Positions 10,152 to 55,000 of a stretch of 64,000 nt of DNA are shown piece by piece (position 1 is the stretch's first letter; every line of letters starts with the position of its first letter). The DNA is from Octopus vulgaris. Taxonomy: Eukaryota. Below the pieces are notes generated by a model. The model was not told where the DNA came from and ran no database searches. It saw only the letters and a list, made by a program, of their open reading frames with translations. A program made the translations under genes and the position numbers. The DNA lies in the NCBI GenBank assembly GCA_951406725.2, contig CATOCA020000001.1, forward strand, positions 5,642,001 to 5,706,000. Direction: 5' to 3'.

Positions 10152-10205
10152 TGAGCTGATGATAGAAATGTCGAGTTTTGACTAATCTTGAAACGTACGT
10201 TCTCA
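10152..10205 (+). ncRNA. Minimal type I hammerhead ribozyme motif (inverted copy)
   Basis: CTGATGA at 10156-10162, GAAA at 10190-10193, GUU triplet ending 10201, CTCA at 10202-10205. Confidence 0.75.
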
Positions 10206-28265: not shown

Positions 28266-29039
28266 ATATATTATCAATAAATATCGAACACTTCTCCTCA
28301 TCACTAATTCGTTTTTCGTTTGACATCTAAAAATTTCGCTTTTTTAATATTACGATTCTTACCCCTTAGCTTCACACCTCCCTGCAATCGTCACACAGCC
28401 TCGATGGTGGTTGCACATGCTAGAAGCAACAGCCAAACCTCACATGATAAAATATGAAACGTTTTTATCATTTGTTTTCTTAATTTCTTGAAAATAAATT
28501 TATTTTCTATTTTCTGATTGGCATTTGGTCAGAAAACTCCGAAGATAAGCCAGTGCCTGAGCAATACAAAGAGGGGAGAGCAAGAATATGCAAGGCTAGT
28601 ACGGTTTAGTGCAGCCGTGCACCGGTTGTCGTCCTATTTTAAGCTGCAAAAATGTGAGAGTCAAATACGAGAGGAAAGGGATCAGACCGGAAGGGATGTG
28701 AATGGAACAGGAAAGAAGTGAATGCCATGGAATAGAAAAAAAGTGAACTAAATCCTAAAATTTGCGAATATATTTAGGTAATAGGGAAAAAAAGTATGTT
28801 TAATTTAAAATGTAATTTCCATTTTTAAAAGAAAGAACATTCTCGAATACATGTTTCTTATAGTTGAACGTCCGCGTGTATTTATGGAGAGAAGAGGTCG
28901 GTTTGTTCCTGCTGTGGGCGAGAGTTTGTTTATTTTAATTTGGCTGACATCCATCTCGATAATGTGTTGCTTTAAGTAGCCTAGGGTCGAAAGCACGAAT
29001 CCCGATAAAACCGCTGACAAAATAAAATAAAATCGATTT

Positions 29040-30645
29040 TCTGTCCCAACTGGAATATGCATGTCAGGTGATCGTCCTGTTTTCTGGAAGAATTATGTTG
29101 CTGAAGAAAATATGCACCAGAACAATGAAGAAATCGTCTCTAAACGGAAAGTGAAGATTTTTCTTATAAATATCCAAAGGAAGCTTGAAGTTGACAGCTT
29201 CGATATCTACAGCCACAATGGTCTTCCTTGACCAGATACAAGAATTGTTGAAGTAGCTAATATTCCAATTGGGCTTAGAGAAGAAACCATTTTTAAGGCA
29301 AAAAAATGTATTAATAAACTTCTGCCAACTTTAGACATTGAACAACGACTAGATTTTGATAAAGCTATCAGGTCCTTAAATAGTAAAAGAAGGAAGAATT
29401 CTGTTCTTAAATGCAAATGGTGGCACAGGGAAAACCTATGTGATCAACATCATACTTGATAGTTGCTACTGCCACGTCTGCTATTGCAACCACTTTGCTT
29501 CTGAAAGGGAGAGTTCTTCATTCTATGTCCAGGATTTCTCTCAGTGAGACTACAAAATCAACATTAAGACTCACAAAGAGAGACGCCACAAGAGAATTTG
29601 TGCCTCAATCTGGTCTCTTAGTTATCGATGGGACCAGGATGGGGCCTAAGCATCTCTGTGAGTGCCTTGAAAGGGGATTGCATGATGTGTGAGACTGTAA
29701 CAAACCTGTTTGTGAATTTACTATATTACTGTCTGGTGATAGAAAACAAATTCTTGCAGTTATGTCATCTTGGAAGATTATAATTTGTTGATGCAGGTCC
29801 TTTCTTGAGGATTGAGTAGAAATAGTGAAGATAGGAACCAATCTAAGACTTCTTACAAAAGGTCATTCTGATGAAAAAGAGTCTGTTAATCACCATTTTG
29901 ATGCTGGAAATGGTGATATTTCTGTCGAACAAAGTCTAGGTGCATCCAAAATCAACCTGCTTTACAACTTTGGCCTGTCAAGTTTATGTGATGTTGTCTT
30001 GCAAATAATTTCAGAGACCCCATGTGGCTTGCAAACAGACCCATTATTACTCCAACAAATGAAATATCACAATTTGTAAATGAATTCATGTTGACCAGGA
30101 TCCCTGGTGAGGTAAAGATATGCAGAAGCTCAGATACAGTTGATAATGAAGCTCTGTACCTAATCAAATTCATCAACAAACTCCTACCATCAGCGTTTCC
30201 ATGGACATATCCTCACACGAAAGACAAGAGGCTGCATTAGGTTTTTGAAGAATTTAGATGCTAAACAAGACCATTGCAATGACACAGGCTACGTTATTAT
30301 CTGCTTCCAAGATCTTATTATTGCTGCTGGGGTTGCTTGTGGTTATTTTGCAGGATCAATCTCAGGGATTCCAAATGGGTCTCAAGGAATTGAGTTCCCA
30401 TTCATAGTTACCATACAAACAATTTCCTGTGGAACCACTCTTTGCCTTGACATGCAACAAAGTACAGGAACAGACATTTAAACAAACTGGAATATATCTT
30501 CCAACACAATTCTTCTCCCGTGGTCAGCTGTAAGTTTCACTTTCTAGAGTTTGGATGAAGCCTGATGTAAAACTATTGGCTGAGAGAAATAGAAACTGTA
30601 TATTTACTAACAATCGTGTCTATAAGGAGGTTCTATTTGACAGCA
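29040..30645 (+). pseudogene. Helitron RepHel Pif1 helicase relic (frameshifted, with stops)
   Basis: GGTGKTYVIN, ATATSAIATTLL..GR.LHS, LLVID, LLSGD..QIL.V, IITPTN, KNLD..Q.HCN.T, QFPV...FALT.NK.Q.QT, FS.GQL.VSLSRV, N.VYKEVL. Confidence 0.88.
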
Positions 30646-31041: not shown

Positions 31042-31247
31042 TCAACTGAAGTCTGATAATAAACATTCAAGCGCCGAGAAACATTCGGTTTCTAAAAGTG
31101 CTTCTTTTAATGTTTGAGGTGTACGTTTCGCTGGATCGCAACCTCGAAACCATTTGAGAAGCATCTGAAAGCCTTGTTCCATAACGCTGTACGAATGGTC
31201 AATCTTGATGATTTCCAGGTCATCTTGTGTAATTTCTAATTCCCTTC
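31042..31247 (-). CDS. Terminal coding exon, death domain GRELEITQDDLEIIKIDHSYSVMEQGFQMLLKWFRGCDPAKRTPQTLKEALLETECFSALECLLSDFS*
   Basis: Death-domain pattern GR.L....I...I......EQ...ML..W........T...L..AL; cttttgcag acceptor; part of ORF 31042..31284. Confidence 0.9.
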
Positions 31248-34200
31248 CTGCAAAAGATACAATAAGAAATAATTGCAAAAGCATTAACGATAATATAAAA
31301 CCTGTGAACTGTAAATTATAGATCTGACAAAGAAATTATGTGAATAGACGAATGAGAAATACTGAAGAAACACGGAAAATAGAAGACATTGTTATCTGTT
31401 TCTAAAGAGTTTGAGAAAAATAAGAAACAAGTTGAAATAAAAGCTGGAATTGGAGAAAACATTTAAGGATCGAATAAAATTGAAAGTTACACATGAGAAA
31501 TCTTCTGGTAAACAACTGGCAGGAGAAGTGTTTGTGTGGGCAGCAGTATACGAAAAGCTCAAGAATCAACAAAGACTACCAATAGTTACACCATTTCATC
31601 TATCCATTCAAATGCTTTGCCCTCTCTTCATAGGAGGGTTATAAGGGTAGAGTCCTCAGGCACCTCCTTCATACGATTCTATCTAAAGTAACCTTGATTA
31701 GAAATTCTGAGAGAATTTCCAAGCGCAACCAATTGAAACTATGGTTTTTATGCAAAAATTTATTCTTGGTTTAGCCCCAGGTCTTCTGTCAGTTGGCTCA
31801 GCTCGATGAATCCCTCTTATGATTCTTTCCTGAGACATTTTAATCACATGCCGGTAGTATTGGAGCAGCTGTGACCTCTCAATGCAGAGAAGCAGTCGTT
31901 TGGCCTGGAGAGACACCCAAATTTCGAAGCTGCACGCGTTACTCCAGGCACTCTTCAGAGGAACTCAATTTCAGTCGTTTTGATAACATCCCATATTCAA
32001 AGAGTGAAATAGTCATCTGTGATGTGGTCCCTCCTATGATTAGTAAATAATTAAAGATTATCAAAATTCAGAAATATCTCGAAAGTGGGATATGACTTCA
32101 ACGGCACAAAGTAAAAATATAACACTGTTAGGTACATATCACATATTATAGAAGATACCAGCTGAAAAGGTAGTTTTGGAATACTGACTCCTAAAAAGGA
32201 ATTCCTTCACTGGCTGAAGGCCACAATTTCAAAAGAATCTCCTACAGGAGAGGCCCAAGAGTAAACAAAGCATTGGGAAGAGTTTTAGTTTGTAGGCAAT
32301 AACAGAACATCTACACCATACACCTACAACACTTGGGTCCTGAAAGAATCCCTGCATCCTCAAACATCTACATCATCTGGAAAGTTATCACAATTTATAT
32401 GCAGGGGAGAGAAAAGGGGTTAATAGGAATTCTATATGGTTTATCTAATGTACGCAATAGGTGCAGCGGTATCACAGGCAAGTTTACAGGGAGGACGGGT
32501 TAGGGTTGGGGAAGGAGTTTTTAAGTAGCAGATACACGGGATTAGTTTGTAGTAAGAACAAGTATGAAAGACATATAGTTTCTCTAACCTAAGAGACATA
32601 ATTAGAAGTGGGTGGGTGGGGGTCTATTCTCAAAGTGCAGTACTTTGAGGAAAAATGGGGTGGAAAATGTACAGGGAACTGTTACGTCTACTGGCAACTA
32701 AGGGATTCTGTCTCCAAATGAAGGAGAGATTGCATGAGGTGTATTTGTAAAGTGCAATGTTGCATTTAATGTAGAAGATGCAGGAAAACTGGCAAGAAAT
32801 GAGGTGAGCATACATCACTAGAAGTGTAATGTTAATGTGTTGAAAACCTGGGGTTAGGGAAAACTGGGTCTCAGAAGAATCTGTGATAGTGCCCAATATA
32901 GTATAGATTTAGAAGGGATATGGTAAATGAAATTTGGATAAAGAAGTGCCTGGAATTCAAGTGGAAGAAAACAAGCGATTAAACCTGACAAACAACCACA
33001 ACGACTGTGGGAGAAGTCGTCTGACACATACAAACTTGAAGAAATGAACGTAAGATGTTGATTATATTGGACTGGTGTTAATGGATTGATTTTTACCCCA
33101 GTATATGACTGGTACATTTTGTATGACTGCCAGAGAAACAACAAATTAGCAATGTCACAGATGATGTCCTCTCTTAATTTAGATAAATCATTTCTATCAG
33201 CTGACTGAGGGGATAATGTTACGATCTCTTGAGTCAGGGGTGAAAGGTTCAAATCTAGTCCCCCAACACAGCTCAATGTCCTGGTAAAGGCATCTCTCTT
33301 CTGGTTCAGTCTACGAACCACGATAGGGAGGTAAAGATATTGATGTAAAAAATAGGAATATTGTATAAATGATATTTTATGTTGTTAAACTTTCAGACAA
33401 GAGGAAATGGGATACTGTGATGTTCATGCCTTTCCAGTAAAGGAGAGTGAAATGATTTCAATTGATAAACAAAATCAAGTTGAGTTTGAATTTTCGGATG
33501 AGATTCTTTTTTTTTTAACGTGAGTTTCATTAATTTACAATACTGAGTTCAATCCAGCCATGGACACAGTCAACAATGGGGGACTGTTTTCTATAGAGAC
33601 TGGCACTATATATTAACCAGGGACTAAAGAACTACAATCAAAGAGAACACAGCATGTCACACATAATGCAAACTCTCGTGTTTAAAAAGGTTGCATTCGA
33701 TAATGTGGTCCTCTTCATCCAAGAGAAAGAATGATGTCACATCTGGAAACCTTCCCTCTTAACTCTGCCAGATTAAAACAGATATCTGCCTCAGCAACAA
33801 CAACAATAACAACCAATCTGTGAACTTTCCAAAAACGTAAACAAACTAAAACATTGTCATTAACTCACCTGTTTAGTCTTTAACACCATTATTCTTGAGT
33901 CCCCTTTTACAAACGACAATATTAACTCGACTGTATCTTCTAATTCAAATATTTTACACCTGTGCTGACCTCGGTGGATATTTTATGAAATTTCAGTGAT
34001 ATCTTTACTTTATAGCTAAACTTTCAATTGGAAACTAGGAATGGAATCTGTTCTCAGTCAAAAGTTTAACTGAAAGCAAAATTTATAGAAATCAATTAGG
34101 TATTTTATACTCACCAAGTTGCTGCCATTTACCGGCCAACTTTTTGGACACCCGATGTAGATGCTTCACCTCTAGCGTTAGTATATCTGAAATAAATGTT

Positions 34201-37200
34201 TCCACATTTTACACTTCATAGTATAATTTCCCTATCTCTGTTAATGGTTTATATCTTATTATTGTAAGACATTCCTATCATCAATGGCCAACTGCTGACC
34301 ACTATAGGTTTCGTCGACAGTTTTATACTTTCTACAGTGGTCTTATAAAATGGCTCAATATTTAGGTCCATAACAAAATAGACTGATCTTCCTAAACCTC
34401 CTTTTTCTATTAAGACAACCTTCTTGATCTATCAATGTTGCATTCATCTCATTTAATTATCACATGTTAACACCTTTTATTTCTTTTCTTTTTTATAGCT
34501 GGGCTAAACCTATGAGATAGCATTGTTCCCTCATCAGTAGACTTCACTAATCCAGTGTTAACCATGTTGGTCATAAATGCTCTTGACACAAACTCATGTC
34601 ATACCACTTGAACTAGGATCAACACACTTTTTAATTTTAACTATGCAACTCACAGTTCACCAGAATTTCATCTGATTCATAAAATATTTTAAGACTCCTT
34701 AATGAAACCGCTTTCATTCCAGGTGAGCAATGATTAGTTTTACAGAGGTGAAACAGAAAGTGATAACAAGTGTCCTAAAACACTGTATACTTGCACAAAA
34801 CATCTTTAACAACATGCAAATGTTTATACACAGATTATTGCAAAAGAAAAATATTTGAAAAGGTACAAAAGAAGTGATATTCAAGAATATATAAACAAGA
34901 TGGTGATATAGATCAAACTTCAAGCACCAAATCTTGTTTTTGCCCAGAAGTTTTGACTTGGCAAATGCTTATTGCCCATCCTCGGTTTCTGCAATGACAT
35001 CAATGCCTCTACTCTTATTAGACAATGTGGGATTGTAGCATCGTCCTCAAGTTAATGTTTTAACTTTTGGCATAGTTTCTCCTACTATTTTGAACCTTAC
35101 CTGTTTCTGTTGACCTTTGACATATGTCAGACCGCATCAAGTAGTTGCTTTAGACAGCATTCTTGACCAAGTAATTAGTCCATCCAGTCTATCCAGAACT
35201 AATTGTATAAACATTTGATCTCTTCTTCTTATTTTTATGTCATCCATAAATGCCTTCTTAAGTGATTTCCCTTGAGTAATTTCTTCTGATAAATCTGCCG
35301 ATCCCCATAAAAGCATCCCCATAACAAGCACAAACCAAGTAACGGATATTGTGCAATCTACAGCTATTCTAGTTTCAATGTTGGGCACACGAAAATCTTT
35401 TTCTAGTGCTTTTGCCACATTAAAATGTACTCAGGACCCTTTATAAAGTGGTTGGTGTTAAGAAAGGCATACTACCATAGGAAAGGTGGAATGTTTAAAG
35501 GAGATGTGTTTCTCAAGCAATCGAGGTGGACAGTAATTCTGAATAAGGACATGGATAGTGACCACCCAGCCAATTCGATGATGAAGACACTATAATCGAT
35601 TGCATTGTATCTTGCACCCAATCTTGAGGAGAGAGAAAGAGAGCAATTGTCTCAGCAGCAGACCAAAGTCTCCTACTGGGATAAACACAACGTTTAGGGG
35701 ATGTAATGATAGATTTACTATCAGTGAAAAAAAGAGAGTGTGTTCACACTTGTAACAATTTTCAACTTAGTCATCTCGTTAAAAATGACCGACAACAACA
35801 ACAACAATTAGGAAACTTATTAAAATGTACAACAAACAAGCTCTCTCATTATCTCATCTGTTTTTACCTTTAAACGACAAATTGCTTTCCTTTATTCCAA
35901 AGACAATATGAAGTCTGTTGTGTTTTCTAATTTAGCCATTTTACCAACAGCGCCAACACTGCTGGACATTTTATTAAATTTCAAATCAGTAATATCAATG
36001 GGCTTGTAGATGCATCCATAGTAAGAGAGAGAGAGAGAGAGAGAAATGACAATATGGCAACGAGATGATAGAAAGAGAGAATATTCCCCTTAAGGGGAGC
36101 GAACCGCTTCAGGTTTTATATTTTATCTCTTGTATTTTTCCTTATCGTATGAGATCTTTTTCCTGTGTCTCATGTTTCCCTATTTCTGTAAAATCCCTTT
36201 ATAGGATATTCCTGCATTTGTAGTAGAACAGAATTACTTTGTAGCTAACCATTCGAATGAAATATAGCAATAGAACCGCTTCTCAGTGATTCACACAAAT
36301 TATGTAGTTCAGGTGGAGGTAAAATTTGTAGAAGTCAATTAGATACAGTTATTTTATACTCACCAAGTGGCTGAGCCTCTGTCTGGGATGCCTTGTCTTC
36401 AACCTTTGGACGCACTGAAATAAACATTTCCAAGTTTTATACTTCATAGTAAAACTTCTTTATCTTTATGAATAATTCTGTATTTTATTATTGTGAGACA
36501 TTCATGTAATCAATGGTCAACTGGTGAGTAATATGGCTTTGGTCAGCATTTTTACACTCTCTACCATGGGACCGTGTAATATACCCAATATATAGGTCTA
36601 CTACTAAATAGACTGACCTTCCTCAATCTCCTCTCACTATTAAGACATCCTACATAATCTAACAACATTGCACTTATCTCATTTAATAATCCCTTGTTAA
36701 CACTGCTAATCTCTTTCTTATATTTAATCTAATCTATGACATGATTGTCCTCTCATCTCTAGACTTCACTAATCAACATTCTTCTCGTTTTCTACTTAAT
36801 TCCATGACAACCAAATTGGTCCTCAAAAATCGGACCACAAAACCATGACACATCGTTTCAGGTAGGATAAACATAACCACGCTCTCTTTTTTAAAGGTCA
36901 CTGTTGGCAATCTTTAATTTTAACTGACCACATCACACTTCATCAGAATATAATCTGATTAAGGAAATGTCAATCATCCTCCTTAATAAGCGACTTTTTT
37001 CAGGTGAACAATGATTAGTTCTACAACGGTGGAGAGGTAAGCGATAACAGGTATCCTGAAACACTGTACTTTTGTACAAAACATCCTTAACAACAAAATC
37101 ACTGTTCATGTACAACACATTATTACAAAGGGGTTATATCCAAATTGAGAACTAACAATTTATTCTGAAGAATATATAAATCGAACTGGAAACATGAAAT

Positions 37201-40200
37201 TGTGCATTTTCTTTAGTAGATTTGAATTATCAGTTGTTTTCTGTCCATCTTCAGCTTTGCCATGGTCTCACTACCCCAGTATGTATCAGTCAACAAGATA
37301 GCGTACCACCATCTTTAACTTTTGGTTTGTCTTTAACTTTTGGCATGAGTTCTCCTGCCGTTCGTAACTTCCTTTGCTCCAGCTGACCTCTCACAAATTA
37401 TAGACTGCATTACTTATTTGCTTGAAACCACATTCTTGACTAAGTACTAACTCTATGGAGTCTACTAACCAGAACTATTTGCATATCCTTTTAGTCTCTT
37501 GTTAGTATTGTTATGTCAGCCATGAATATCTTTCCGTTGAGCAATTTCTTCTGGACATTCTGTTAATCTAATTAGCATAACTATAAAGATCACCAACCAA
37601 CTGATATTGTGCAACCTACAGCTATTCCAGAACCCGAACCTGGCAGTCTTTTGTGAAATTCTATCCTATGAAACACATTTTGAAACTGTTATAGCATCTC
37701 ATCATCAGATCCTCAATCTCCTCCCATTTATGAAAGAAATTCCTTGTTTCCATCAACAATGTGTGTGGTACAGAACAATAAGCATTAGCCAGATCAAGCC
37801 ATACTACATCCGAATCCCTTTTATTCTTCTTTGCTTTTTATATGGTATCCCAGATTTAAAATACATGTTCTACACACACAGACATTCTCCGAATTCTAGT
37901 CTTCTGGACATTTTCAGTCGTATAACCATTATTTTGCTGACATGTAGCTGATTTCATGGCAAGTACACCCATGTAAATCTTGCCATTCAAGATTGAAATT
38001 GGCTTCAATTGGTCACTTAGTTCTGCATTAACTTACTTTGATGAATAAAATCCTTTTGTCTTGCACCATTCATCAATCAGTCCACCTTTATCCCACAACT
38101 CTCTAAATAGTAATTAATGCTTATAACACCTGGGCACAACATCTGTACACGTTCTATGGTACACAATCACCTCCCGTTGCAATCTCCGTTCTTGCCTTCT
38201 TCACTAAGCTTTATCGCAAAGCTGAAATATTTGATTACTGGTTTCATTGGACATTTCAATCCAAACATGAGCAGGTAAAGTTGACTTCGCTTGGGATCAT
38301 TGTATATCTGCCGTATATTCTTGTTCACTTCATCTTTAGTGCATTATAATCTCCCCCACTTAACATCGGCAAAAATATCCTAGTACCATCAGAAGGGTTC
38401 TTAAGGAGCTTTTATCTAAGGTGTTCACTATCCGTTCTCCTTTCAACCCGTCCGATGTCTCTTTGAATGTATTTGATTGTATTGTATCATACAGCCTCTA
38501 TGAAGTTTGAAGAAAGGGAAAGAGACAACGGTTTTCTGAGCAGCAAACCAACGTCTTCCACTGGAATAAAGACAATGTTTACTGGATGCAATGATAGATT
38601 TATTATCAGTGAAAAATATGAGGGTGGTCATATTTGGAACGCATTTCATTGTAAGTCTGCCAGATTATGAGCGACATCAGCTAAAATAACAACAATAACT
38701 TGTCAGTAAACATTTAAAAAATATAAAACAAACAAAACCTTTGTCATTACCTCACCTGTTAAACCACAACATATATTATTTGGCTGCTCCAAAAGAGAAC
38801 CTGAAATCTATTTCGCTTCTCATTTATCCATTTCACCAACCGTGCTAACCTGATTGGATACTTTATGAAATGTCAATAGTATCGATATGTTAAATAGTTT
38901 ACTGCTAAAACTTCCCATTGAAAGGTAAGAATGGAAGCTGATCTTTATCATTCTGATATCAAAATAAGCAGAGGATATACTTTACAGAAATCAATCTAGT
39001 GCTGTTATTTTATACTCAACAACAGGTTCTGCCAGTGTCTGTGTTTCTTTGTCTTCAAATGTTCGATTCTCTGAAATAAATATTTCCAAGTTTCAAACGT
39101 TATAGTAAAATTTCCTCACATGTACTTTTTCCCCAGGACATGGAGAAATATGCCACTCTGCTGCAAGTCCATGATCATTCTGATGATTAAAGAGATTTGT
39201 TTGATGTCCCTAGTTCTTGTATTGGTCGGCTGCTCCGTCACTGAAGTACAGGAGATGGTTTATGAATGGAAGTTCTGTCTTTATATGCGATATCACCCTC
39301 GTAATAAAAGCATGCACTGTGCTGTAGTCATGTTTCAAACAATCAGATATGACACAGATTGAAGTGCATTGTGGGTTTGAACCAGTCTTATAACAAATCG
39401 CGAATGGTGAATATTTGCCTGGGATTTGTTTCGATGAAACCCTTGCAGGGCGTCCTGTACTACAAAGCTATAATTTTTTTCTGTAAAGTCCAACAATACT
39501 ATTGCTTCACTTGATGTCAGGTCATCTTTTTGATGATTAAGGAAACAAGATTGGGCCTCTGCTATGAAATGATGTTGTTGTAGAGATTCAAACACACTTT
39601 CAGCGGTTTGAATGAAGGCATTCACTGGGGAAGTGAGTCATAAAGGAGCTGACCAGTCCACATGTGCCAACTGTTTGTGCGTTACTAAACCTCCAAGTGA
39701 TTAAAATACGTCTAATAAACGTTGTTCAAAAGGACAGGACTCACATAGGAGCAACATACAATCTCGATTGCTCACGGAAGAGACCATTTTGCCAAGCAAG
39801 TCTCTGTAGTCGTGACTACCAGGAATGGCAGCGGCGATACGTTTTGCATGTTGGTGATTCTCACAGACACATACTGAATGCATGCCTGAGGTGTACTGCG
39901 CATACACACCAAAAGTGTGCGGGTGAATTCACTAGGGGGTTTTCTCAATCTAAGCGTATCTCCCAAGATCCCGGTGTCCTGTTATTGCCATTGTGAGGCC
40001 AATGTTTGAAGGTCATACTTCATCACCTCATCCCATGTCTTCCTGGGTCTACCTCTTCTACAGGTTCCTTCTACAGTGAGGGAGTGGCACTTCATCACAC
40101 AGCTGTTTTCATTCATACGTAACACATGACCATACCAGCACAGTAGCCTCACTTGCACACCACATTTGATGCTTCTTATGCCCAACTTTGTCGTGATTGC

Positions 40201-43038
40201 ATACTGACGTTACACATCCAGCGAATCATACTAACTTCATCTCTTTCAAGCCTACGCATGTCCTGAGCATCCATGGCCCATGTTTCCCTGCCCTGTAACA
40301 TGGCTGTTCGCACACATGCATCATGCAGTCTACCTTTCACCCTGAGTGATAGACCTTTAGTTGCCAGCAGAGGTAGGAGCTCCCTGAACTTTGCCCAGGC
40401 TATTCTTACTCTAGTCTCTACACACGCAGAGCAATCACACTCACTACAGACTTGATCCCCTAGGTAACAGAAGCTATTAACTACTTCTAGTTTCTTCCCC
40501 TGGCATGTGATGGAATCTGTTTTCTGTACACCTTCAGTGTTTATTGCCCCAGAGCATTTGCCACACACAAAAACTATTTTCCCGGTTAACTTTCTTTGAT
40601 ATTGCGGCATCTTTTATGTGTCCATAGCTTCCCCGGTTACATCGTGTGGAGTTTCTACCCTCTCCATTTCTACAGATAGAGCAGGGCCATCTACCTGAAA
40701 TGGGTTGTGATTTGACAGCCTTCCTACTAACAAGGACTTTGGTTTTGACTAGGGTTTTGACTAAGGCCCTTCAATTCTAGACTTTGCTCCCACACCCTTA
40801 ACTTTGTCTCTAGTTCTGGCAGTGACTTGTCTGTAAGAGCAAGGTCATCAGCATAAAGAGGCTCCCAGGGGCAGAGTGCCTTGAATTCCTCTTTTATTGT
40901 CTGGAGGACTATAATGAATAGGAAAGGGCTGAGGACGGATCCTGGGTGAACCCTGATGTGTATTTGTAATATGGAATGTTTCACAGAGTATAGAGGATGT
41001 ATGAAAACTGTTAAGAAATGAAGTGAGCATACTTCAGAAGAAGTGTAATATTAATGTGCTGAAGTCCCGGAGCAGAGATGAGCTGGAAGCAAAACTGGGG
41101 TTTAGAAGATTCAGAGATAGCACACAAGAGACGAGATGGTACAGATATGGGAGGAGTATGGAAGATAAAAGTTAGATAAAGAAGTGTCAGGAGATCCAAG
41201 TAGAAGGGAACAAGACGTTAAACCTGTGGGAGTAGTCAAATTTGAATGCAACAATCAAGTCAGAACTAAAACCAGAGGTGAAACACTCAGAAAACTGTGC
41301 CTCTTTTAGCATTAATATCATCTAAAATGTAACAAGAGTGAGAAAAAGAATGACTATATGGATGGTAAATGTTGTTCAAACAATGTAATAAGTGTATATT
41401 ATATATAGTTACAAACAAGGATTTGTGAGATCAAGTCACACAGGGAACTCATATTTAATTGCTATCTTTATAATTTATGTCAACACCAATGTTTTGTTTA
41501 AATGCAAACAGATGTTCACCGTTCAATACTAAATTTAATATTTAATCAACGTTAATGATCATTATACTTACAATCTTAGAGATTTGATTTTTAATTTCTT
41601 TAATTTATAACAAAGTTATTCTGACCTGAGACATTCAGGGTACGTACCTAAACAACATATCCTGACAGACATCTGGCTACATAACAATAACAACAACAAT
41701 AACCTATGAGAAAACTTTGGAAAGACCTTAGTAGCAAAAGAAACAAAAACTTTCTCGTTACCTCACCTGTTTACAAATAAACAACAAAATGTTTTAGTTC
41801 TCTGTCCTAAAAGACATCATTAACTCTATAATGTCTTCTTATTTAACCATTTTACCAACCACGTTAACCTTGATTTTATGAAATTTCAGTGGAATATTTA
41901 ATAGAATCCTTTTTACAGCTAATGCGGAAACTAGGGATTGACGAGCGATTATAAGAGTTGAAGAGGCCCTGTAGTAAGGTGAGGATTGGCAATGAGTATA
42001 GTGAAGAATTCCGGATAGAAGTAGGAGTTCACTAGGGATCATTCCTAAACCCCTCGTTTTCATCATAGTCCACCATGCAATAACAGAAATGACAAATCAA
42101 AAGCAATTCAAGATCGAAATCAAAATGGAAATTGTAGTTGTGACCGATGCCAGTGCCGCCTGACTGGCACCTGTTCCTGTGGCACGTTATAAGTACCATA
42201 GAAGCATAGGTCCTTGTCACTGCCGCCTGACTAGTTCCCTGTGCCGGTGGCACGTAAAAAGCACCATCCGAACGTGGTCGATGCCAGCCCCCACACCGGC
42301 TGGCTCCTGTGTCGGTGGCACGTAAAAGGCACCCACCACACTCTCGAAGTGGTTGGCATTAGGAATGGCATACATATGTGGAAACCTTGCCAGATCACAT
42401 TGGAGCCTGGCGCAGCCTACTGCCTTGCCAGTGAAATCGTCCGACCCATGCCACGATAAGAAACGGATGTTAAATGATGATGATGATGAGTTCTGTGACC
42501 AAATGACAAAATTAACTCTATTGTGTCTTCTAATTTGAACATTATTACCAACAGCATTAACCTCAATGGGTGTTTCATAAACTCTCAGTAAATCGATATC
42601 TTTAATTCAATTATTATACAGATAATCGTTCAATTGGAAAATAGGAATGGAAGCTGTTTTCAGTTATTCTTTCGAGCACAATATACTCGGGGGAAGAAAA
42701 CCTTACAGAAATCAATTGGGAACTATTATTTTATACTCACCAATTGCCTGAGATGCAGCCCCTAATTCCTGACATATAGCCTCTGTTTGTACACACCTGT
42801 CTTCAAACTTTGGAGCCTCTGGAATAAATATTTCCAAGTTTTACATTTAATAATAAAATTTCTTTATCTTTATTTTTATTAAACTCTATCTTTTTATTGT
42901 GAGACATTCAATTCCTGTCGTTAATGGTCAAATGTTGACCACTATGGTTTTGGTCAATATTTCTGTACTTTCTACAGTGGTCCCATGTAGTAGCTCAATA
43001 TGTCCACAATAAAACAGACTAACATTTCTAAATCCACC

Positions 43039-43075
<37 letters not shown>

Positions 43076-44229
43076 AAAACACATTAAATATTCTAACAAT
43101 GTTGCAATTATCTCATTTAATTAACACTTGATGACAGTTTTCTCTTAGCATTGTCTTTCTTTTCTTATAACTGCCAAATCTATGGCATGGCACTGTCCTC
43201 TCATATCTAGAATTCACTAATCAACATTCCTCTCTAATTAAGTAAAACTGCACCCATAAAGATGTCCTTTATATGCATACCCTCCAACCCGCACACAATC
43301 TGTCCCCTAAAAAACATCTCCACAAGCCAAATTCCATACACCCTTCCCCAACATGATCCCTAACAAGATATAAAATGTAATGTGAGGGTACACGATGTTC
43401 CTATGACAAAATATGTTAACATTTAAGATTCAGAGATAGCACACAAGAGACGAGATGGTACAGATATGGGAGGAGTATGGAAGATAAAAGTTAGATAAAA
43501 ATAAAGAAGTGTCAGGAGATCCAAGTAGAAGGGAACAAGACGTTAAACCTGTGGGAGTAGTCAAATTTGAATGCAACAATCAAGTCAGAACTAAAACCAG
43601 AGGTGAAACACTCAGAAAACTGTGCCTCTTTTAGCATTAATATCATCTAAAATGTAACAAGAGTGAGAAAAAGAATGACTATATGGATGGTAAATGTTGT
43701 TCAAACAATGTAATAAGTGTATATTATATATAGTTACAAACAAGGATTTGTGAGATCAAGTCACACAGGGAACTCATATTTTATTCCTATCTTTATATTT
43801 TATGTCAACACCAATGTTTTGTTTAAATTCAAACAGATGTTCACCGTTCAATACCAAATTTAATATTTAATCAACATTAATGATCATTATACTTATACTC
43901 TTAGAGATTTGATTTTTAATCCTTTTAATTTATAACAATGTTATCCTGTGGTTTGTTGCAAGTTCTACCTGGCTGGTTCCCTGTGCCGGGGGAAAGTAAA
44001 AAGCACCATCCGAACGGTGTCAATGCCAGCCCCAACCTCAACTGGCTCCTGTGTCGGTGGCACGTAAAGAGCACCCACCACACTCTCGGAGTGGTTGGCA
44101 TTAGGAATGGCATACATATGTGGAAACCTTGCCAGATCACTTTGGATCCTGGCGCAGCCTACTGCCTCTCCAGTGAAATCGTCCGACCCATGCTACTATA
44201 AAAACGGACGTTAAACGATGATGATGATG

Positions 44230-44278
<49 letters not shown>

Positions 44279-47200
44279 GTTCCATGACCAAATGACAATA
44301 TTAACTCTATTGTGTCTTCTAATTTGAACATTATTACCAACAGCATTAACCTCAATGGGTATTTCATAAATTCTCAGTAAATCGATATCTTTAATTCAAT
44401 TATTATACAGATAATCGTTCAATTGGAAAATAGGAATGGAAGCTGTTTTCAGTTATTCTTTCGAGCACAATATACTCGGGGAAAGAAAACCTTACAGAAA
44501 TCAATTGGGAACTATTATTTTATACTCACCAATTGCCTGAGATGCAGCCCCTAATTCCTGACATATAGCCTCTGTTTGTACACACCTGTCCTCAAACTTT
44601 GGAGCCTCTGAAATAAATATTTCCAAGTTTTACATTTAATAATAAACTTTCTTTATCTTTATTTTTATTAAACTCTATCTTGTTATTGTGAGACATTCAA
44701 TTCCTGTCGTTACTGGTCAACTGTTGACCATTATGGTTTTGGTCAATATTTCTGTACTTTCTACAGTGGTCCCATGTTATAGCCCAATATGAAACAATAA
44801 AACAGACTAACATTTCTATATCCACCCTCACTTCTCACTCCCTCTCTCTCTCTCTCTCTAAAAACACATTAAATATTCTAACAATGTTGCAATTATCTCA
44901 TTTAATTAACACTTGATAAGAGTTTTCTCTTAGCTTTGTCTTTCTTTTCTTATAACTGTGCCAAATCTATGGCATGGCACAGTCCTCTCATCTCTAGAAT
45001 TCACTAATCAACATTCCTCTCTAATTAAGTAAAACTGAGCCCATAAAGACATGTCCTTTATATGCATACCCTCCAACCCGCACACAATCTGTCCCCTAAT
45101 AAACATCTGCACAAGTCAAATTCCATACACCCTTCCCCACCATGATCCCTAACAAGATATAAAATGTAAGGTGAGGGTACACGATGTTCCTATGACAAAA
45201 TAAGTTTACATTTCAGACATACAAATGTAAGAGAGTTAATGAATTATAGCTTATTAATTATCATGATAATTGGGTATATATGTGATACAATGGCACTGTG
45301 CTTGACGGTGCAATACTAGATATCAATATAGATTGTATATAATCTGAGTAAAGAACATATAACCGTCATTACTATGAATATGATTGTGTCTCAGCACAGC
45401 TAATATTATGGTAGTTCCATGAGCAAACGAAGAAAGATATAACCAAGTCCACTGCCAAATACTAATGATTAATTCATTTCCTGGTCAAATAACAATGACT
45501 ATCTTTCATTAAATAATTTGAACGCAACGATGTCAGTGTGCACACAAGGCAGAGTGAAGAGGCCTGAGAGAAGTGTTAGACATAAGAAGCATCAGATGTG
45601 GTGTACAGGAGAGACAACTGCACTGGTATGGTCATGTGTATGGATGAGGAGAGCTGTGGGAAGAAGTGTTACACCCTAACAGTGGAAGGAACCCGTGGAA
45701 AGGAGTGGCCCAGGAAGACAGGGGATGACGTAGTGAAACGACCTTCGAACGTTGGGCCTCACAGAGGTAATGGCAAGAGACAGAGACCTGTAGAAATATG
45801 ATGTAATTAAGAGGACTCGGCAAGTGAAGTGAGATCAGAGCTGTAGCATATACCAGTGGCGCATAACCAGCCCTTTTTAAAAGTACCCTTGAATCACAGA
45901 GTGATAAGTTGCGCTTGAGAAGAATTTCCGAGTCAAGTAAAACCAAAAACCAGAAATCACAAATCAAAATCAAATCAAGATCGAAATCAAAATGCAAATT
46001 GTAATCATGGCTGATGCCAGAGCCGCCTGGCTTCCACCCGTGCCGGTGGCACGTAATAAGTACCATTCAAACATTGTTTGTTGCCAGTGCCGCCTGACTG
46101 GTTCCCTGTGTCGGTGGCACGTAAAAAGCACCCACCATACTCTCGGAGTGGTTGGCGTTAGGAATGGCAAACATATGTGGAAACCTTGCCAGATCACTTT
46201 CGAGACTGGCGCAGCCTACTGCCTTGCCAGTGAAATCATCCAATCCATGCCACCATAAAAAAACGGACGTTAAACGATTGTGATGTTGATGATGATGATT
46301 AGTTCCATGACCAAATGACAAAATTTACTCTATTGTGTCTTCTAATTTGAACATTATTACCAACAGCATTAACCTCAATGGGTATTTCATAAACTCACAG
46401 TAAATCGATATCTTTAATTCAATTATTATACAGATAATTGTTCAATTGGAAAATAGGAATGGAAGCTGTTTTCAGTTATTCTTTCAAGCACAATATACTC
46501 GGGGGAAGAAAACCTTACAGAAATCAATTGGGAACTATTATTTTATACTCACCAATTGCCTGAGATGTAGCCCCTAATTCCTGACATGTAGCCTCTGTTT
46601 GTACACACCTGTCCTCACACTTTGGAGCACCTGAAATAAATATTTCCAAGTTTTACATTTAAAAATAAAATGTCTGTATCTTTATTTTTTTAAACTCTAT
46701 TTTGTTATTGTGAGACATTCAATTCCTGTTGTTACTGGTCAACTGTTGACCATTATGGTTTTGGTCAATATTTCTGTACTTTCTACAGTGGTCCCATGTA
46801 ATAGCCCAATATGTCCACAATAAAACAGGCTAACATTCCTAAATCCACCTCTCTCTCTCTCTCTCTCTCTAAAAACACATTAAATATTCTAACAATGTTG
46901 CAATTATCTCATTTAATTAACACTTGATGACAGTTTTCTCTTAGCATTGTCTTTCTTTTCTTATAACTGTGCCAAATTTATGGCATGGCACAGTCCTCTC
47001 ATATCTAGAATTCACTAATCAACATTCCTCTCTAATTAAGTAAAACTGCACCCATAAAGACATGTCCTTTATATGCATACCCTCCAACCCGCACACAATC
47101 TGTCCCCTAAAAAACATCTCCACAAGCCAAATTCCATACACCCTTTCCCAACATGATCCCTAACAAGATATAAAATGTAAGGTGAGGGTACACGATGTTC

Positions 47201-50200
47201 CTATGACAAAATAAGTTTACATTTCAGACATACAAATGTAAGAGAGTTAATGAATTATAGCTAAATATTTATCTTGATAATTGGGTATATACACTACCGT
47301 CAGAAATTAATTAGCACCCTTGATTTGCTCACCATGAAGCATGGTGGGGGTGGTCTGATGGTGTGAGGAGCGTTCAGCTACAGTTGTGTTGGGTGGCTCT
47401 ATGCCGTCGAAGGCAACATCAACGCAGCAAAGTACGTTGAGATAGTACGGGATACCTCTTTGGTGGCGAGGAGTACGTGCTGGCCAGTCACCTGACCTGA
47501 ACCCTATTGAGAACCTCTGGAGTCGATTGGGTAGGGATTTGAATGTGCAGCAATACAGGAACCGACACGAGCTGTTTGGGGCACTTCTTGCTGCATGAGG
47601 GGCCATCCCTGCACAGTACCTGCAGGCACTCATAGAGAGCATGCCGACCCGCGTAGCAGCTGTCATTGCTGCCAAAGGAGGAGCAACAAGATATTGACTA
47701 AACTTCACGATTAATATCAATTATGTGGTGTGCTGGGATATGTTTTAATAAATTTTTGATTAAAAACGAGTTCGTTTCTGATAATAAGTTAATTAAATTA
47801 AGAAAATGTAAGAAAATGTAGAAATTTGAGAAGTGCTAATTAATTTCCGACGCAAGTGTATGTGATAGAATGGCACTGTGCTTGACGGTGCAATACTAGA
47901 TATCAATATAGATTGTATATAATCTGAGTAAAGAACATATAGCCTTCATTACTATGAATATGATTGTGTCTCAGCACAGCTAATATTATGGTAGTTCCAT
48001 GAGCAAACGAAGAAAGATATAACCAAGTCCACTGCCAAATACTAATGATTAATTCATTTCCTGGTCAAATAACAATGACTATCATTCATTAAATAATTTG
48101 AACGCAACGATGTCAGTGTGCACACAATGCAGAGTGAAGAGGCCTGAGAGAAGTGTTAGACATAAGAAGCATCAGATGTGGTGTACAAGAGAGACAACTG
48201 CACTGGTATGGTCATGTGTATGGATGAGGAGAGCTGTGGGAAGAAGTGTTACACCCTAACAGTGGAAAGAACCCGTGCAAAGGGGTGACCCAGGAAGACA
48301 GGGGATGATGTGGTGAAACGACCTTCGAACGTTGGGCCTCACAGAGGTAATGGCAAGAGACAGAGACCTCTGGAAATATGATGTGATTAAGAGGACTCGG
48401 CAAGTGAAGTCAGATCACAGCTATAGCCTATACCAGTGGTGCATAACCAGCCCTTTTTAAAAGTACCCTTGAATCACAGAGTGATAAGTTGCGCTTGAGA
48501 AGAATTTCCGAGTCAAGTAAAACCAAAAACCAGAAATCACAAATCAAAATCAAATTAAGATCGAAATCAAAATGGAAATTGTAGTTGTGACCGATGCCAG
48601 TGCCGCCTGGCTGGCACCCGTGCCGGTGGCACGTAATAAGTACCATTCAAACATTGTTTGTTGCCAGTGCCGCCTGACTAGTTCCCTGTGCCGTTGGCAC
48701 ATAAAAAGTGCCTTCCGAACGTGGACAATGCCAGCCCCAACTTCAACTGGCTCCTGTGTCGGTGGCACGTAAAAGGCACCCACCACACTCTCGAAGTGGT
48801 TGTCGTTAGGAATGGCATACATATGTGGAAACTTTGCCAGATCACATTGGAGCCTGACGCAGCCAACTGCCTTGCCAGTGAAATCGTCCGACCCATGCCA
48901 CTATAAGAAACGGACGTTAAATGATGATGATGATGATGATGATTATGATGATGATGATTATGATGATGATGATGATGATGATGAGTTCTGTGACCAAATG
49001 ACAAAATTAACTCTATTGTGTCTTCTAATTTGAACATTATTACCAACAGCATTAACCTCAATGGGTATTTCATAAACTCACAGTAAATCGATATCTTTAA
49101 TACAATTATTATACAGATAATCGTTCAATTGGAAAATAGGAATGGAAGCTGTTTTCAGTTATTCTTTCGAGCACAATATACTCGGGGGAAGAAAACCTTA
49201 CAGAAATCAATTGGGAACTATTATTTTATACTCACCAATTGCCTGAGATGCAGCCCCTAATTCCTGACATATAGCCTCTGTTTGTACACACCTGTCTTCA
49301 AACTTTGGAGCCTCTGAAATAAATATTTCCAAGTTTTACATTTAATAATAAAATTTCTTTATCTTTGTTTTTATTAAACTCTATCTTTTTATTGTGAGAC
49401 ATTCAATTCCTGTCGTTACTGGCCAAATGTTGACCATTATGGTTTTGGTCAATATTTCTGTACTTTCTACAGTGGTCCCATGTAATAGCCCAATATGTCC
49501 ACAATAAAACAGACTAACATTCCTAAATCCACCCTATCCCTCTCTCTATCTCTCTCTCTCTAAAAACACATTAAATATTCTAACAATGTTGCAATTATCT
49601 CATTTAATTAACACTTGATGACAGTTTTCTCTTAGCTTTGTCTTTCTTTTCTTATAACTGTGCCAAACCTATGGCATGGCACAGTCCTCTCATCTCTAGA
49701 ATTCACTAATCAACATTCCTCTCTAATTAAGTAAAACTGAGCCCATAAAGACATGTCCTTTATGTGCATACCCTCCACCCCGCACACAATCTGTCCCCAA
49801 ATTCCATACACCCTTCCCCACCATGATCCCTAACAAGATATAAAATGTAAGGTGAGGGTACACGATGTCCCTATGTCTAAATAAGTTTACATTTCATACA
49901 TACAAATGTAAGAGAGTTAATGAATTATAGCTTATTAATTATCATGATAATTGGGTATATATGTGATACAATGGCACTGTGCTTGACGGTGCAATACTAG
50001 ATCTCAATATAGATTGTATATAATCTGAGTAAAGAACATATAGCCTTCATTACAATGAATATGATTGTGTCTCAGCACAGCTAATATTATGGTAGTTCCA
50101 CGAGCAAACGAAGGAAGATATAACCAAGTCCACTGCCAAATACTAATGATTAATTCATTTCCTGGTCAAATAACAATGACTATCTTTCATTAAATAATTT

Positions 50201-51984
50201 GAACGCAACAATCAAGACCAAAGGGTGAAACACTCAGAAAACTGTGCCTCTTTTAGCATTAATATCATCTAAAATCTAACATTTGTGAGAAAAAGAATGA
50301 CTATATGGATGGTAAATGTTGTTCAAACAATGTAATAAGTGTATATTATATATAGTTACAAACAAGGATTTGTGAGATCAAGTCACACAGGGAACTCATA
50401 TTTAATTGCTATCTTTATAATTTATGTCAACACCAATGTTTTGTTTAAATGCAAACAGATGTTCACCGTTCAATACTAAATTTAATATTTAATCAACGTT
50501 AATGATCATTATACTTACAATCTTAGAGATTTGATTTTTAATTTCTTTAATTTATAACAAAGTTATTCTGACCTGAGACATTCAGGGTACGTACCTAAAC
50601 AACATATCCTGACAGACATCTGGCTACATAACAATAACAACAACAATAACCTATGAGAAAACTTTGGAAAGACCTTAGTAGCAAAAGAAACAAAAACTTT
50701 CTCGTTACCTCACCTGTTTACAAATAAACAACAAAATGTTTTAGTTCTCTGTCCTAAAAGACATCATTAACTCTATAATGTCTTCTTATTTAACCATTTT
50801 ACCAACCACGTTAACCTTGATTTTATGAAATTTCAGTGGAATATTTAATAGAATCCTTTTTACAGCTAATGCGGAAACTAGGGATTGACGAGCGATTATA
50901 AGAGTTGAAGAGGCCCTGTAGTAAGGTGAGGATTGGCAATGAGTATAGTGAAGAATTCCGGATAGAAGTAGGAGTTCACTAGGGATCATTCCTAAACCCC
51001 TCGTTTTCATCATAGTCCACCATGCAATAACAGAAATGACAAATCAAAAGCAATTCAAGATCGAAATCAAAATGGAAATTGTAGTTGTGACCGATGCCAG
51101 TGCCGCCTGACTGGCACCTGTTCCTGTGGCACGTTATAAGTACCATAGAAGCATAGGTCCTTGTCACTGCCGCCTGACTAGTTCCCTGTGCCGGTGGCAC
51201 GTAAAAAGCACCATCCGAACGTGGTCGATGCCAGCCCCCACACCGGCTGGCTCCTGTGTCGGTGGCACGTAAAAGGCACCCACCACACTCTCGAAGTGGT
51301 TGGCATTAGGAATGGCATACATATGTGGAAACCTTGCCAGATCACATTGGAGCCTGGCGCAGCCTACTGCCTTGCCAGTGAAATCGTCCGACCCATGCCA
51401 CGATAAGAAACGGATGTTAAAGATGATGATGATGAGTTCTGTGACCAAATGACAAAATTAACTCTATTGTGTCTTCTAATTTGAACATTATTACCAACAG
51501 CATTAACCTCAATGGGTGTTTCATAAACTCTCAGTAAATCGATATCTTTAATTCAATTATTATACAGATAATCGTTCAATTGGAAAATAGGAATGGAAGC
51601 TGTTTTCAGTTATTCTTTCGAGCACAATATACTCGGGGGAAGAAAACCTTACAGAAATCAATTGGGAACTATTATTTTATACTCACCAATTGCCTGAGAT
51701 GCAGCCCCTAATTCCTGACATATAGCCTCTGTTTGTACACACCTGTCTTCAAACTTTGGAGCCTCTGGAATAAATATTTCCAAGTTTTACATTTAATAAT
51801 AAAATTTCTTTATCTTTATTTTTATTAAACTCTATCTTTTTATTGTGAGACATTCAATTCCTGTCGTTAATGGTCAAATGTTGACCACTATGGTTTTGGT
51901 CAATATTTCTGTACTTTCTACAGTGGTCCCATGTAGTAGCTCAATATGTCCACAATAAAACAGACTAACATTTCTAAATCCACC

Positions 51985-52021
<37 letters not shown>

Positions 52022-55000
52022 AAAACACATTAAATATTCTAACAATGTTGCAATTATCTCATTTAATTAACACTTGATGACAGTTTTCTCTTAGCATTGT
52101 CTTTCTTTTCTTATAACTGCCAAATCTATGGCATGGCACTGTCCTCTCATATCTAGAATTCACTAATCAACATTCCTCTCTAATTAAGTAAAACTGCACC
52201 CATAAAGATGTCCTTTATATGCATACCCTCCAACCCGCACACAATCTGTCCCCTAAAAACATCTCCACAAGCCAAATTCCATACACCCTTCCCCAACATG
52301 ATCCCTAACAAGATATAAAATGTAATGTGAGGGTACACGATGTTCCTATGACAAAATAATGTTAACATTTCAGACATACAAATGTAAGAGAGTTAATGAA
52401 TTATAGCTTATTAATTATCATGATAATTGGGTACATATGTGATACAATGGCACTGTGCTTGACGGTGCAATACTAGATATCAATATAGATTGTATATAAT
52501 CTGAGTAAAGAACATATAACCTTCATTACTATGAATATGATTGTGTCTCAGCACAGCTAATATTATGGTAGTTCCATGAGCAAACGAAGAAAGATATAAC
52601 CAATCCACTGCCAAATACTAATGATTAATTCATTTCCTGGTCAAATAACAATGACTATCTTTCATTAAATAATTTGAACGCAACAATCAAGACCAAAGGG
52701 TGAAACACTCAGAAAACTGTGCCTCTTTTAGCATCAATATCATCTAAAATCTAACAAGAGTGAGAAAAAGAATGACTATATGGATGGTAAATGTTGTTCA
52801 AACAATGTAATAAGTGTATATTATATATAGTTACAAAGAAGGATTTGTGTATTCAAGTCAAATTCAATTTCTGATTGTATATTTTGTATAAACACCAATA
52901 ATTTGTTTAAATATAAACAGATGTTCACGGTTCAATATTTAATTTTACATTTAATAAAATTAAGTTCATGATGAATATTCTTATACAGAGTTAACATTTA
53001 ATTATAATTTTCTAATTTGCAACTACAAAATGTATTCTAACCAGAGACATTGAGGGTACACAACCCCAGAAAATACAAAATATTACGACAGACATCTGGC
53101 TACATAACAACATCAAGAATAACCTATCAGAAAACTTACGAAAAATCTTAGTAGAAAAACAAACAACTATTTTATTAACTCACGAGTTTACACCTAAAAA
53201 ACATAAATTATAGTTCCATAGAAGACAATATTAACTCTATTGTGGCTTTTAATTTATCCATTTGACCAAACATGTTAAACATGACTTTATGAAATTTCAG
53301 TAATATTTTTAATACAATTACTTTAGAGCTAAACTTTCAAATGGAAATTAGAAATGGGATCTGTTCTCCACCATTCTAATAAGCAAAATAGCTGAGGTGA
53401 ATGTAAAATCTATAGAAATTCATTAAGATCTCTAATTTTAAACTCATCAACTGTCTCTGCCACAGTCTGCACTCCCTTCTCTTCAAACTTTGGACTCTCT
53501 GAAATATGTGTTTCCAAGTTTTATAGTTATTTATAGCACAATTTCTTCATATTTATTAATAATCTATATTTTATTATTGAGAGACATTCATATCATCAAT
53601 GGCCAACCAGCGATCATAATGCTTTTGGTCAATATTTTTATACTTTCAACCGCGGACCCATGTAATAGCCAATATTTAGCTCCAAAACGAACTCTAGTTG
53701 ATCTTTGTAAATTTCCTCTTTCTGTTAAGATATCCTACATAATCTAACAATGCTGTAATTATATCACTTAATTATCACCTAATAACAGTTAATCTGTAGG
53801 TTTTGGTTTCCTTGCTTATATCTATGCCAAATCTATTGCATTTTCAAAACCCTGATCTTCACTAACAACCTGTTTGATTCCAGTGTCAACAAATTTATTC
53901 ATCAAAGATATAACAACAAACACATGTCACAACCACTTCAAGAAGGAGAAACATACACCTAATCTCTTTGTTAAACATTGTTGCTGATAATCCCTAATTT
54001 TAACTTCACAGTTCACCAGAATGTCATCTCATTCAGGATATATTTGAAGGTTTCATGATCTGGTTGCTTGACAAACAAAACTGTCTCTATTAGCCTTAAT
54101 ACCCACCAATTACAAACATAACAACATGGAATTGTGTGTTAAAGTCTCTCAAACTAGTGACAATAATTTTACTCCTTTAAAATATTCTACTAAATCTAAT
54201 ACTTTACCAAAGATGACACTGATGTCCTTGTAAGTACTGTTGTATTTAATTATCTTCTAATAACTCATAATTATCTTCTAATAACTCATAATTATTTATA
54301 GTGTTGATGGAGATTTATTGATACTTCAGTTACTCACTAATTATCTTGCAGAATCCTCCATTATCTTTATGTTGCAGACTACAACCCTCTTGAAGTGTGA
54401 CATGTTTCCTACTTGGATAAAATCAATGTTTAGTGGATGTAGTGTGAGAGATATACTATTACAGAGAACAGACACTAGGAACACCTTTTATCATAAATCT
54501 GCCAGATTATGGCAGACCTCTGTCTACATAACAACATGAATCATATTATTCTACACAATAAGGGCAATGGGACAAGCAGGACAAACAGACAGATCAGCAA
54601 AGAATATTCTTACCAACTCGACCTCTGCTTGTTACAGGTTTCAAACACCTCAGGCATCGTTTAAGTGCAACGTTTGAACATTCTTCACATGTCAGAAGGT
54701 GTTCACAGGGATGAACTTTTGTTGTGGCCTCTTTATTTCTGCACAACAAACATCTGTGGACAAAACAGAAACATCCAATCAATAACATTCATTTATAATA
54801 AGTATTATATTATTTACATGTTCGGAATAGAGAATATTATAAGATACATCAGTAACTACCAAGAGTAGAGCAGAAACTCTTCTTTAAATATTTACATACA
54901 TACTGCATTTTGTGTAGTTAAATGACGCAGAAACACACACACACACATACAAGTATACACACTCATGCATACATACATTGATGAATGTTTGTCTTGATCC

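Follow-up and report, generated by a model that had tools for sequence, protein, structure and literature searches.

Tandem exon duplication with mutually exclusive splicing has been described in Dscam1, myosin heavy chain and tropomyosin (PMC9013439), and in the NCoR co-repressors short linear motifs are distributed among several exons, with alternative splicing changing which are present (PMC4554918). Tandem exon duplication, splicing-varied motifs and multivalent clients of the dynein light chain LC8 are each known already. Here we have analysed a 64,000-nucleotide stretch of Octopus vulgaris DNA (contig CATOCA020000001.1, positions 5,642,001 to 5,706,000; hereafter the window, with coordinates counted from its first letter), which contains a minus-strand gene for an ankyrin-RING-death-domain protein. 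We show that the first death-domain exon of this gene, DD1, was duplicated in tandem together with its intron flanks, and that the copies are now phase 1-1 cassettes lying between the RING and the death domain. Along the minus strand the gene runs through the ankyrin region, the exon at 57735-57910, the RING exon, nine short phase 1-1 exons (eight linker units and DD1), all with lengths that are multiples of 3, and the last exon, DD2. The exons of the array and of the death domain are:

53448..53498, minus strand: 51-nt linker exon, AT donor, motif EKGVQTV; skipped in the protein P0022 and the most DD1-like unit in the window
51687..51764, minus strand: 78-nt linker exon, GT donor; unit near-identical to that at 42741
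49236..49313, minus strand: 78-nt linker exon, GT donor
46553..46630, minus strand: 78-nt linker exon, GT donor; six changes with the motif intact, and the clearest internal 21-nt repeat (17/21)
44530..44607, minus strand: 78-nt linker exon, GT donor, one silent change
42741..42818, minus strand: 78-nt linker exon, GT donor, motif DRCVQTE
39020..39070, minus strand: 51-nt linker exon, TT donor, motif DKETQTL with the canonical KETQT; upstream flank cut to ∼45 nt
36364..36414, minus strand: 51-nt linker exon, GT donor, motif DKASQTE; the same unit occurs in P0006 and P0009
34115..34186, minus strand: DD1, 72-nt phase 1-1 exon for death-domain helix 1 and the first turn of helix 2, with Leu10 and Trp21
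33772..35372, minus strand: intron flanks around DD1, homologous to those of the other units (65-67% identity across 700-1470 nt)
31042..31247, minus strand: DD2, last coding exon with the stop, from the end of helix 2 to helix 6, phase-1 start

The initial annotation had proposed that the linker micro-exons are copies of the DD1 exon, and the flank motifs that it described around DD1 and the micro-exons were found where it had placed them. The flanks bore this proposal out. When the 614 nt upstream (in transcript sense) of 34115-34186 were searched with BLASTN, they matched all eight other units (E 2e-62 to 4e-7). Compared with dinucleotide shuffles after removal of the splice signals, the upstream DD1 flank gave z scores of 15-25 in seven of the eight units and the downstream flank 7-15 in all eight; altogether 15 of 16 flank tests beat the shuffles (z 7-25), the single failure being upstream of 39020 (z 1.2), where only ∼45 nt of flank are present. 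Four other exons of the gene, used as a control in eight comparisons, gave z between -3.0 and 0.9. The similarity is thus significant beyond the splice signals, and a lack of it between 34115-34186 and the other units, the outcome named in advance as speaking against duplication, was not what we observed. A profile search of the whole window recovered exactly nine complete units and, besides them, three fragments of the flank; every match falls in 33931-53748, inside the array, so that within the window the flank does not behave as a dispersed repeat. The units are at least 1.6 kb apart and the array reaches 53498, the ninth unit (53448-53498) lying beyond the end of the region first annotated. 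Tandem homologous exons, homologous flanks and a shared phase, by which tandem exon duplication is recognised, are all present. Identity to DD1 is 0.48-0.54 for the colinear exon and 0.68-0.76 for the flank, the latter inflated by the exclusion of gaps, and the exon interiors taken alone are weakly alike at the DNA level within the window (z 1.1-2.5). The peptide alignment on which the proposal had leaned is accordingly not significant in the DNA of the window and needs the paralogs for its support. In an alignment and tree of the nine units, the 78-nt exons formed a clade (100/100) containing the pair 42741/51687, while the remainder was a star.

As the flank tree was star-like, the polarity of the duplication was taken from proteins. 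The family set comprised 70 of 81 hit identifiers (the 11 weakest, unnamed hits were omitted from every count), with a common layout of RING, a number of short units, a 24-residue DD1 and DD2. The linkers of 42 proteins, cut by hand from the protein sequence, yielded 97 units, 59 of them unique, in 28 clusters. Of the 27 cluster representatives with at least 12 residues, 17 scored better against a DD1 matrix than 2000 shuffles (1% level) when placed on it from the exon start with no gaps allowed. The earlier suggestion that a structured-domain exon was recycled into a linear-motif exon agrees with this, and the paralogs supply its direction. Searched against PDB sequences, a profile of the family's death domain hits RIPK1 (E 4.6e-8), ankyrins, Fas, PIDD and CRADD, and because its alignment to RIPK1 covers the DD1 part, we strongly infer from the sequences that the DD1 state is ancient and hence the parent. 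Paralog DD1 exons are nearer to the linkers than the window DD1 is (ETPKLEERCLQDVA vs EAPKFEDRCVQTEA), and intermediates exist: P0046 and P0071 have a decayed 24-residue DD1 copy immediately before the true DD1, and P0040 and P0057 have 24-residue KGVQT exons with Ser at the Trp position. Trp21 is found in 28 of 28 unique DD1 peptides, although Trp at -4 from the exon end was imposed by the search pattern, and Leu10, which lay outside that pattern, is likewise invariant (28/28); no Trp occurs in the last six residues of any of the 59 unique linker units. The replacement of the death-domain Trp by Ser noted at the outset, when anchored at the exon 3' end, holds for all 11 unique 26-residue units, and Ser is also present in 2/2 16-residue, 1/1 19-residue and 2/5 full-length 24-residue units, but the 17-residue units mostly have Ala or Val there (27/33). 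The flank comparison covers the window, and the paralog evidence is that of proteins. All these data make it very probable that the linker units descend from DD1.

The 78-nt exons contain an internal 21-nt tandem repeat (15-17 of 21 positions identical, a level reached by 6 of 2000 codon shuffles), and a 19-residue unit of the single-copy length occurs in P0027 and P0075. Because both the repeat and this unit exist, the 78-nt exon would most simply be a 57-nt exon plus a duplication. The AlphaFold2 model of the close paralog P0007 (48-row alignment) shows a confident six-helix domain (residues 269-353) starting in DD1, whose part corresponds to the helices 269-277 and 283-289. The predicted local distance difference test score (pLDDT) is above 85 over residues 271-350 of the death domain and below 50 over residues 202-260, the linker itself being helix-free at 27-36, values that a gappy alignment could also lower; the linker is therefore predicted, by this model, to be disordered, and so is the motif region within it. 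A single-sequence structure of P0007 (mean pLDDT 46) was discarded. The fold search with the better P0007 model gave only ankyrin matches among the matches listed and was uninformative on the death domain, the 78-nt peptide had no match among PDB sequences, and the linker had no usable match in the ESM Atlas.

The motifs given above occupy exon positions 7-13, DRCVQTE being common to all five 78-nt exons. At position -3 the LC8 consensus has Arg or Lys; it has been written as [D/S]-K-X-[T/V/I]-Q-[T/V]-[D/E] (PMC3078936), and further rules ask for a polar residue at -4, a large one at -3, no internal Pro and a non-hydrophobic residue at +2 (PMC6607443). In ASCIZ, LC8 binding is partly due to SQT and VQT motifs (PMC5963919), and non-TQT motifs tend to be weaker (PMC12057147). 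The five 78-nt exons satisfy every positional rule in section 9 of PMC6607443. Gln with T/V/I at -1 and T/V at +1 is present in seven of the eight window linker units (36364 has Ser at -1), and the flank rules are satisfied by the six linker units with GT donors, the two with dead donors having Val or Leu at +2. Among the 59 unique units of the family, 23 carry the [TVI]Q[TV] anchor (2.8 expected on shuffling), 11 the consensus with K or R at -3 (0.01 expected) and three the exact consensus (0.01 expected), and none of 25 DD1 peptides carries the anchor. A core-rule motif is found in the linkers of 27 of 42 proteins and in 12 of 28 clusters, as compared to 1 of 7739 background 7-mers. Over the clusters, Val10, Gln11 and Thr12 are conserved at 0.59, 0.58 and 0.59; these three are the only derived residues, and even among them Gln occurs in a share of the DD1 exons (0.25). 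None of the changes among the 78-nt copies touches a motif residue. From these sequence matches, functional LC8 binding by the cassettes is predicted, and we consider it somewhat more probable than its absence. Among the papers listed in the literature searched (subscription journals and supplements being outside it), none was on this family or on a route from a death-domain exon to an LC8 motif; the family is not mentioned in passages from PMC11463336 and 10.1101/2024.05.23.594666, and passages from 10.1101/2023.09.15.557927 do not contain the word 'exon'.

We lean slightly towards reading the cassettes as a disordered LC8 linker, splice- and copy-tuned and multivalent, that would pair two chains between the RING and the death domain. 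With DD1 as the parent, the copies very probably lost the core residues Leu10 and Trp21, ceased to fold, and were shortened (51 nt) or re-extended by the internal 21-nt duplication (78 nt). Their number in front of the intact DD1 probably varies, through changes in copy number from gene to gene and through the skipping of exons within one gene. In the helix-1 segment, (D/E)-K-x-L-(Q/H)-(D/R) would have become (D/E)-(K/R)-x-V-Q-T, a candidate LC8 site. LC8 dimers binding the same motif on two chains could zip them into a parallel ladder, which would keep two RINGs and two death domains in register, with the number of cassettes setting avidity and spacing. In general, RING dimerisation and death-domain clustering switch on proteins of this kind. 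More tentatively, we propose that a few substitutions in a pre-adapted (D/E)-K-x-L-Q segment exapted the helix-1 exon for LC8 binding and that it was then amplified. Octopus would thus have an expanded ankyrin-RING-death-domain family in which LC8 valency, and hence a dimerisation threshold, would be set by exon copy number and splicing, the fold-to-motif series being visible among paralogs. The origin of short linear motifs is usually untraceable, whereas in this family the parent exon survives next to full-length copies in decay, shortened ones and the intron flanks, and the change of a folded helix into a candidate binding motif can be followed stepwise. If this is true, a ubiquitin-ligase-like death-domain family would join the multivalent LC8 clients, with its valency set exon by exon.

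Several observations count against this reading. The units are kin, and the above counts therefore overstate the independent cases; in the paralogs the units were delimited manually on the protein sequence, and the flank tree could neither root the family nor order the events. TQT-type anchors often do not bind, 31 of 53 peptides being without LC8 binding in section 7 of PMC6607443. Moreover, 15 of the 42 proteins have no core-rule motif in the linker, VQA, VKT and VKK variants account for 16 of 57 unique units of at least 16 residues, and Pro3 (0.69) is as conserved as the triad. Asp/Glu at -4 and Lys at -3 go back to helix 1 and therefore cannot be counted as signs of selection. Among the four distinct 78-nt copies, exon changes (19/468, 4.1%) are as frequent as flank changes (81/2395, 3.4%), with no excess conservation of the exon, and the single canonical KETQT in the window sits in one of the two units whose donors are dead. 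Some of these are also grounds for the main rival explanation, in which the copies have the same DD1 origin but are near-neutral spacers, symmetric exons being tolerated, VQT being a by-product of one ancestral copy and only length, or nothing, mattering: anchors are often lost, two of eight donors are dead, exon and flank divergence are equal, and P0032, P0037 and P0053 carry no linker unit. However, the triad is kept in units too diverged to cluster (the 12 of 28 clusters above) and in P0059 and P0063 of O. bimaculoides, and position -2 varies freely while -1 shifts among V, T and S, as LC8 motifs permit. We regard near-neutral spacers as unlikely, if still a serious possibility.

The initial annotation had also raised the possibility that the 78-nt copies are alternative first helices, spliced directly to 31247 in place of DD1 and altering the death-domain surface as in a mutually exclusive cassette. 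With a death-domain profile built from 36 natural family domains, a 78-nt exon joined to DD2 scored 108-109 bits, DD2 alone 97.1, a 51-nt exon with DD2 102-103 and DD1 with DD2 134.6. The 78-nt gain exceeded all of 500 shuffles, and the 51-nt gains did not exceed theirs (51/500 and 21/500 shuffles); over their own shuffles, the 78-nt exon contributed ∼10 bits and DD1 ∼33. The 78-nt exon retains the equivalents of Val13, Leu17, Gly18 and Leu24, although its 'LG' match may be a product of the repeat junction and not of direct descent. Furthermore, 17 of 62 DD2-containing models, and P0041 which the pattern missed, lack DD1, and P0084 joins a 16-residue unit to DD2. However, Leu10 and Trp21 are absent from the copies, whose linker is disordered in the model, and this indicates that the structural role of the parent was lost. 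The copies are also stacked before DD1 in the protein models, in numbers of up to six units. Twenty proteins have 26-residue units and 16 of them reach DD2; 15 of these keep DD1, one has a 16-residue unit between, and none joins a 26-residue unit to DD2 directly. O. sinensis isoform models with identical ankyrin, RING and death-domain sequence contain four, three and one copies (P0012, P0013, P0017), and a second set three, one and one (P0019, P0021, P0024); all these counts refer to protein and gene models and not to reads. A mutually exclusive cassette has one member per transcript, which is not the pattern in these models, and because all units are multiples of 3, the reading frame cannot enforce exclusion. 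Among the 25 longest of 344 inverted repeats, no docking- or selector-like pairing was found beyond microsatellite and transposon pairs. As for the DD1-less models, eight have O. vulgaris names or contigs and nine are unnamed; no named model from O. sinensis or O. bimaculoides is among them, a pattern consistent with short exons having been missed. Alternative first helices are therefore improbable, and additive use of the cassettes is likely.

Several features of the array itself deserve mention. The stretch 33317-33343 resembles a small exon that replaces DD1 in the O. vulgaris models P0008 and P0010, with an AT instead of an AG acceptor in the window. CT tracts lie ∼220-235 nt upstream (in transcript sense) of four 78-nt acceptors (43045-43074, 44842-44859, 46849-46870 and 51991-52020), and a degenerate tract is found near 49537; the one AG tract, at 36024-36043, is located between the 36364 exon and DD1. 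The CT and AG tracts could pair in the pre-mRNA and loop out variable numbers of cassettes with DD1 kept, or could occur by chance, microsatellites being common here. Donors are AT at 53448, TT at 39020 and GT in the other seven units, DD1 included, and the 39020 exon is probably skipped in this allele. The spliced model that uses the seven units with GT donors is a single open frame of 1245 nt. Adenosine-to-inosine editing is abundant in octopus, and, speculatively, it could in principle restore the AT donor at 53446-53447. An element with 29-nt terminal inverted repeats, presumably a Tc1/mariner-type remnant, is inserted in one array unit (47289-47861). The blocks 41239-43428 and 50196-52374 differ by 4 mismatches in 2121 aligned bases (99.8% identical) and represent either a very recent duplication or an assembly or haplotype artefact, and the number of 78-nt copies may be four.

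It has to be considered as well that the cassettes carry another type of motif, such as SQ/TQ kinase sites created by the change of Trp to Ser before Gln. SQ/TQ is the preference of ATM/ATR-type kinases, and Ser-Gln is found near the exon end in 26-residue units and in several units of 16-24 residues. This explanation is quite improbable, as SQ is of low information and the 17-residue units, with Ala or Val at that position in 27 of 33, often keep VQT nonetheless. Finally, a dispersed repeat as the source of the flank similarity, or an array that is largely an assembly artefact, as the 2.1-kb block at 99.8% identity between two units and other near-perfect duplications in the window might suggest, is very improbable, because flank matches are confined to the array and in every case keep register with an exon, older units are 51-76% identical, and O. 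sinensis models also hold up to four 26-residue units; at most one or two array copies could be spurious.

The remaining exons of the gene are:

62816..62852, minus strand: short exon (37 nt) upstream in the ankyrin region, with weak tblastn matches to paralogs (E 0.14 and 1.4)
59517..59726, minus strand: ankyrin-repeat exon
57735..57910, minus strand: exon linking the ankyrin repeats to the RING
54614..54753, minus strand: RING exon, C3HC4-type (zf-C3HC4_3, E 7.8e-8), phase-1 end

P0022, named Octopus vulgaris, equals the spliced window gene over the first 218 of its 226 residues, through two 78-nt exons; it lacks the 53448 exon and runs into the intron after the second 78-nt exon. The relatives are ankyrin-RING-death-domain proteins labelled MIB1/MIB2-like in databases, and the named homologs come only from O. 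sinensis, O. vulgaris and O. bimaculoides (a few names are cut after 'Oct'), although one homolog search scored 8000 candidates only, and relatives in squid or cuttlefish are therefore possible. Pfam Death was above the cut-off in four of six scanned family proteins, with E 2.9e-6 in P0007, and gave no match with DD2, DD1 or the 78-nt peptide taken alone. The N-terminal substrate modules of Mind bomb are Mib/Herc2-ZZ and the mib-repeat. None of these families (Mib/Herc2, ZZ, mib-repeat) was matched in the six scanned proteins at E 0.01, the 5' end of the window gene being untraced. The family may consist of lineage-specific, fast-changing signalling proteins that are mislabelled as Mind bomb. 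The same DD1 occurs with different DD2 (P0006, P0007, P0009), the same linker unit with different DD1 (P0027, P0075) and the same 26-residue unit behind different RING types (P0052, P0076, P0079); modules appear to have been swapped among paralogs, or the models chain adjacent genes.

Elsewhere in the window, positions 1-23078 form a large nested inverted duplication (for instance 3-640 with 22441-23078 at 96% and 9031-9567 with 9708-10244 at 100%). Downstream of the gene, 29000-30500 contains a disrupted reading frame, with a word resembling a P-loop near 29420, which we take to be a Helitron/Pif1-type helicase remnant. Positions 27776-28246 and 56559-57062 are two inverted copies (95%) of one fragment, presumably the end of a long interspersed nuclear element (LINE) reverse transcriptase.

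When compared with the described systems, this locus shares with Dscam1, myosin heavy chain and tropomyosin the tandem duplication of an exon and its flanking intron within one gene, but the octopus copies are stacked and not swapped, the parental fold has been lost and the parent exon is still in place. As in the LC8 clients ASCIZ, Nup159, Chica and bassoon, several (K/R)-x-(T/V/S)-Q-T motifs lie in a predicted disordered stretch; unlike in these, each exon brings a single candidate motif, splicing and exon copy number both change how many there are, the stretch separates a RING from a death domain, and the motif goes back to a helix of the death domain. The order of ankyrin repeats followed by a C3HC4 RING recalls MIB1/MIB2, and the MIB1 ankyrin is among the top fold matches listed, whereas a single RING, a C-terminal death domain and the lack of Mib/Herc2, ZZ and mib-repeat matches in six of six proteins set the family apart. 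Finally, splice-varied short linear motifs across exons are shared with the NCoR co-repressors, in which one large exon was split by introns, while the octopus motif exons come from a duplicated structured-domain exon.

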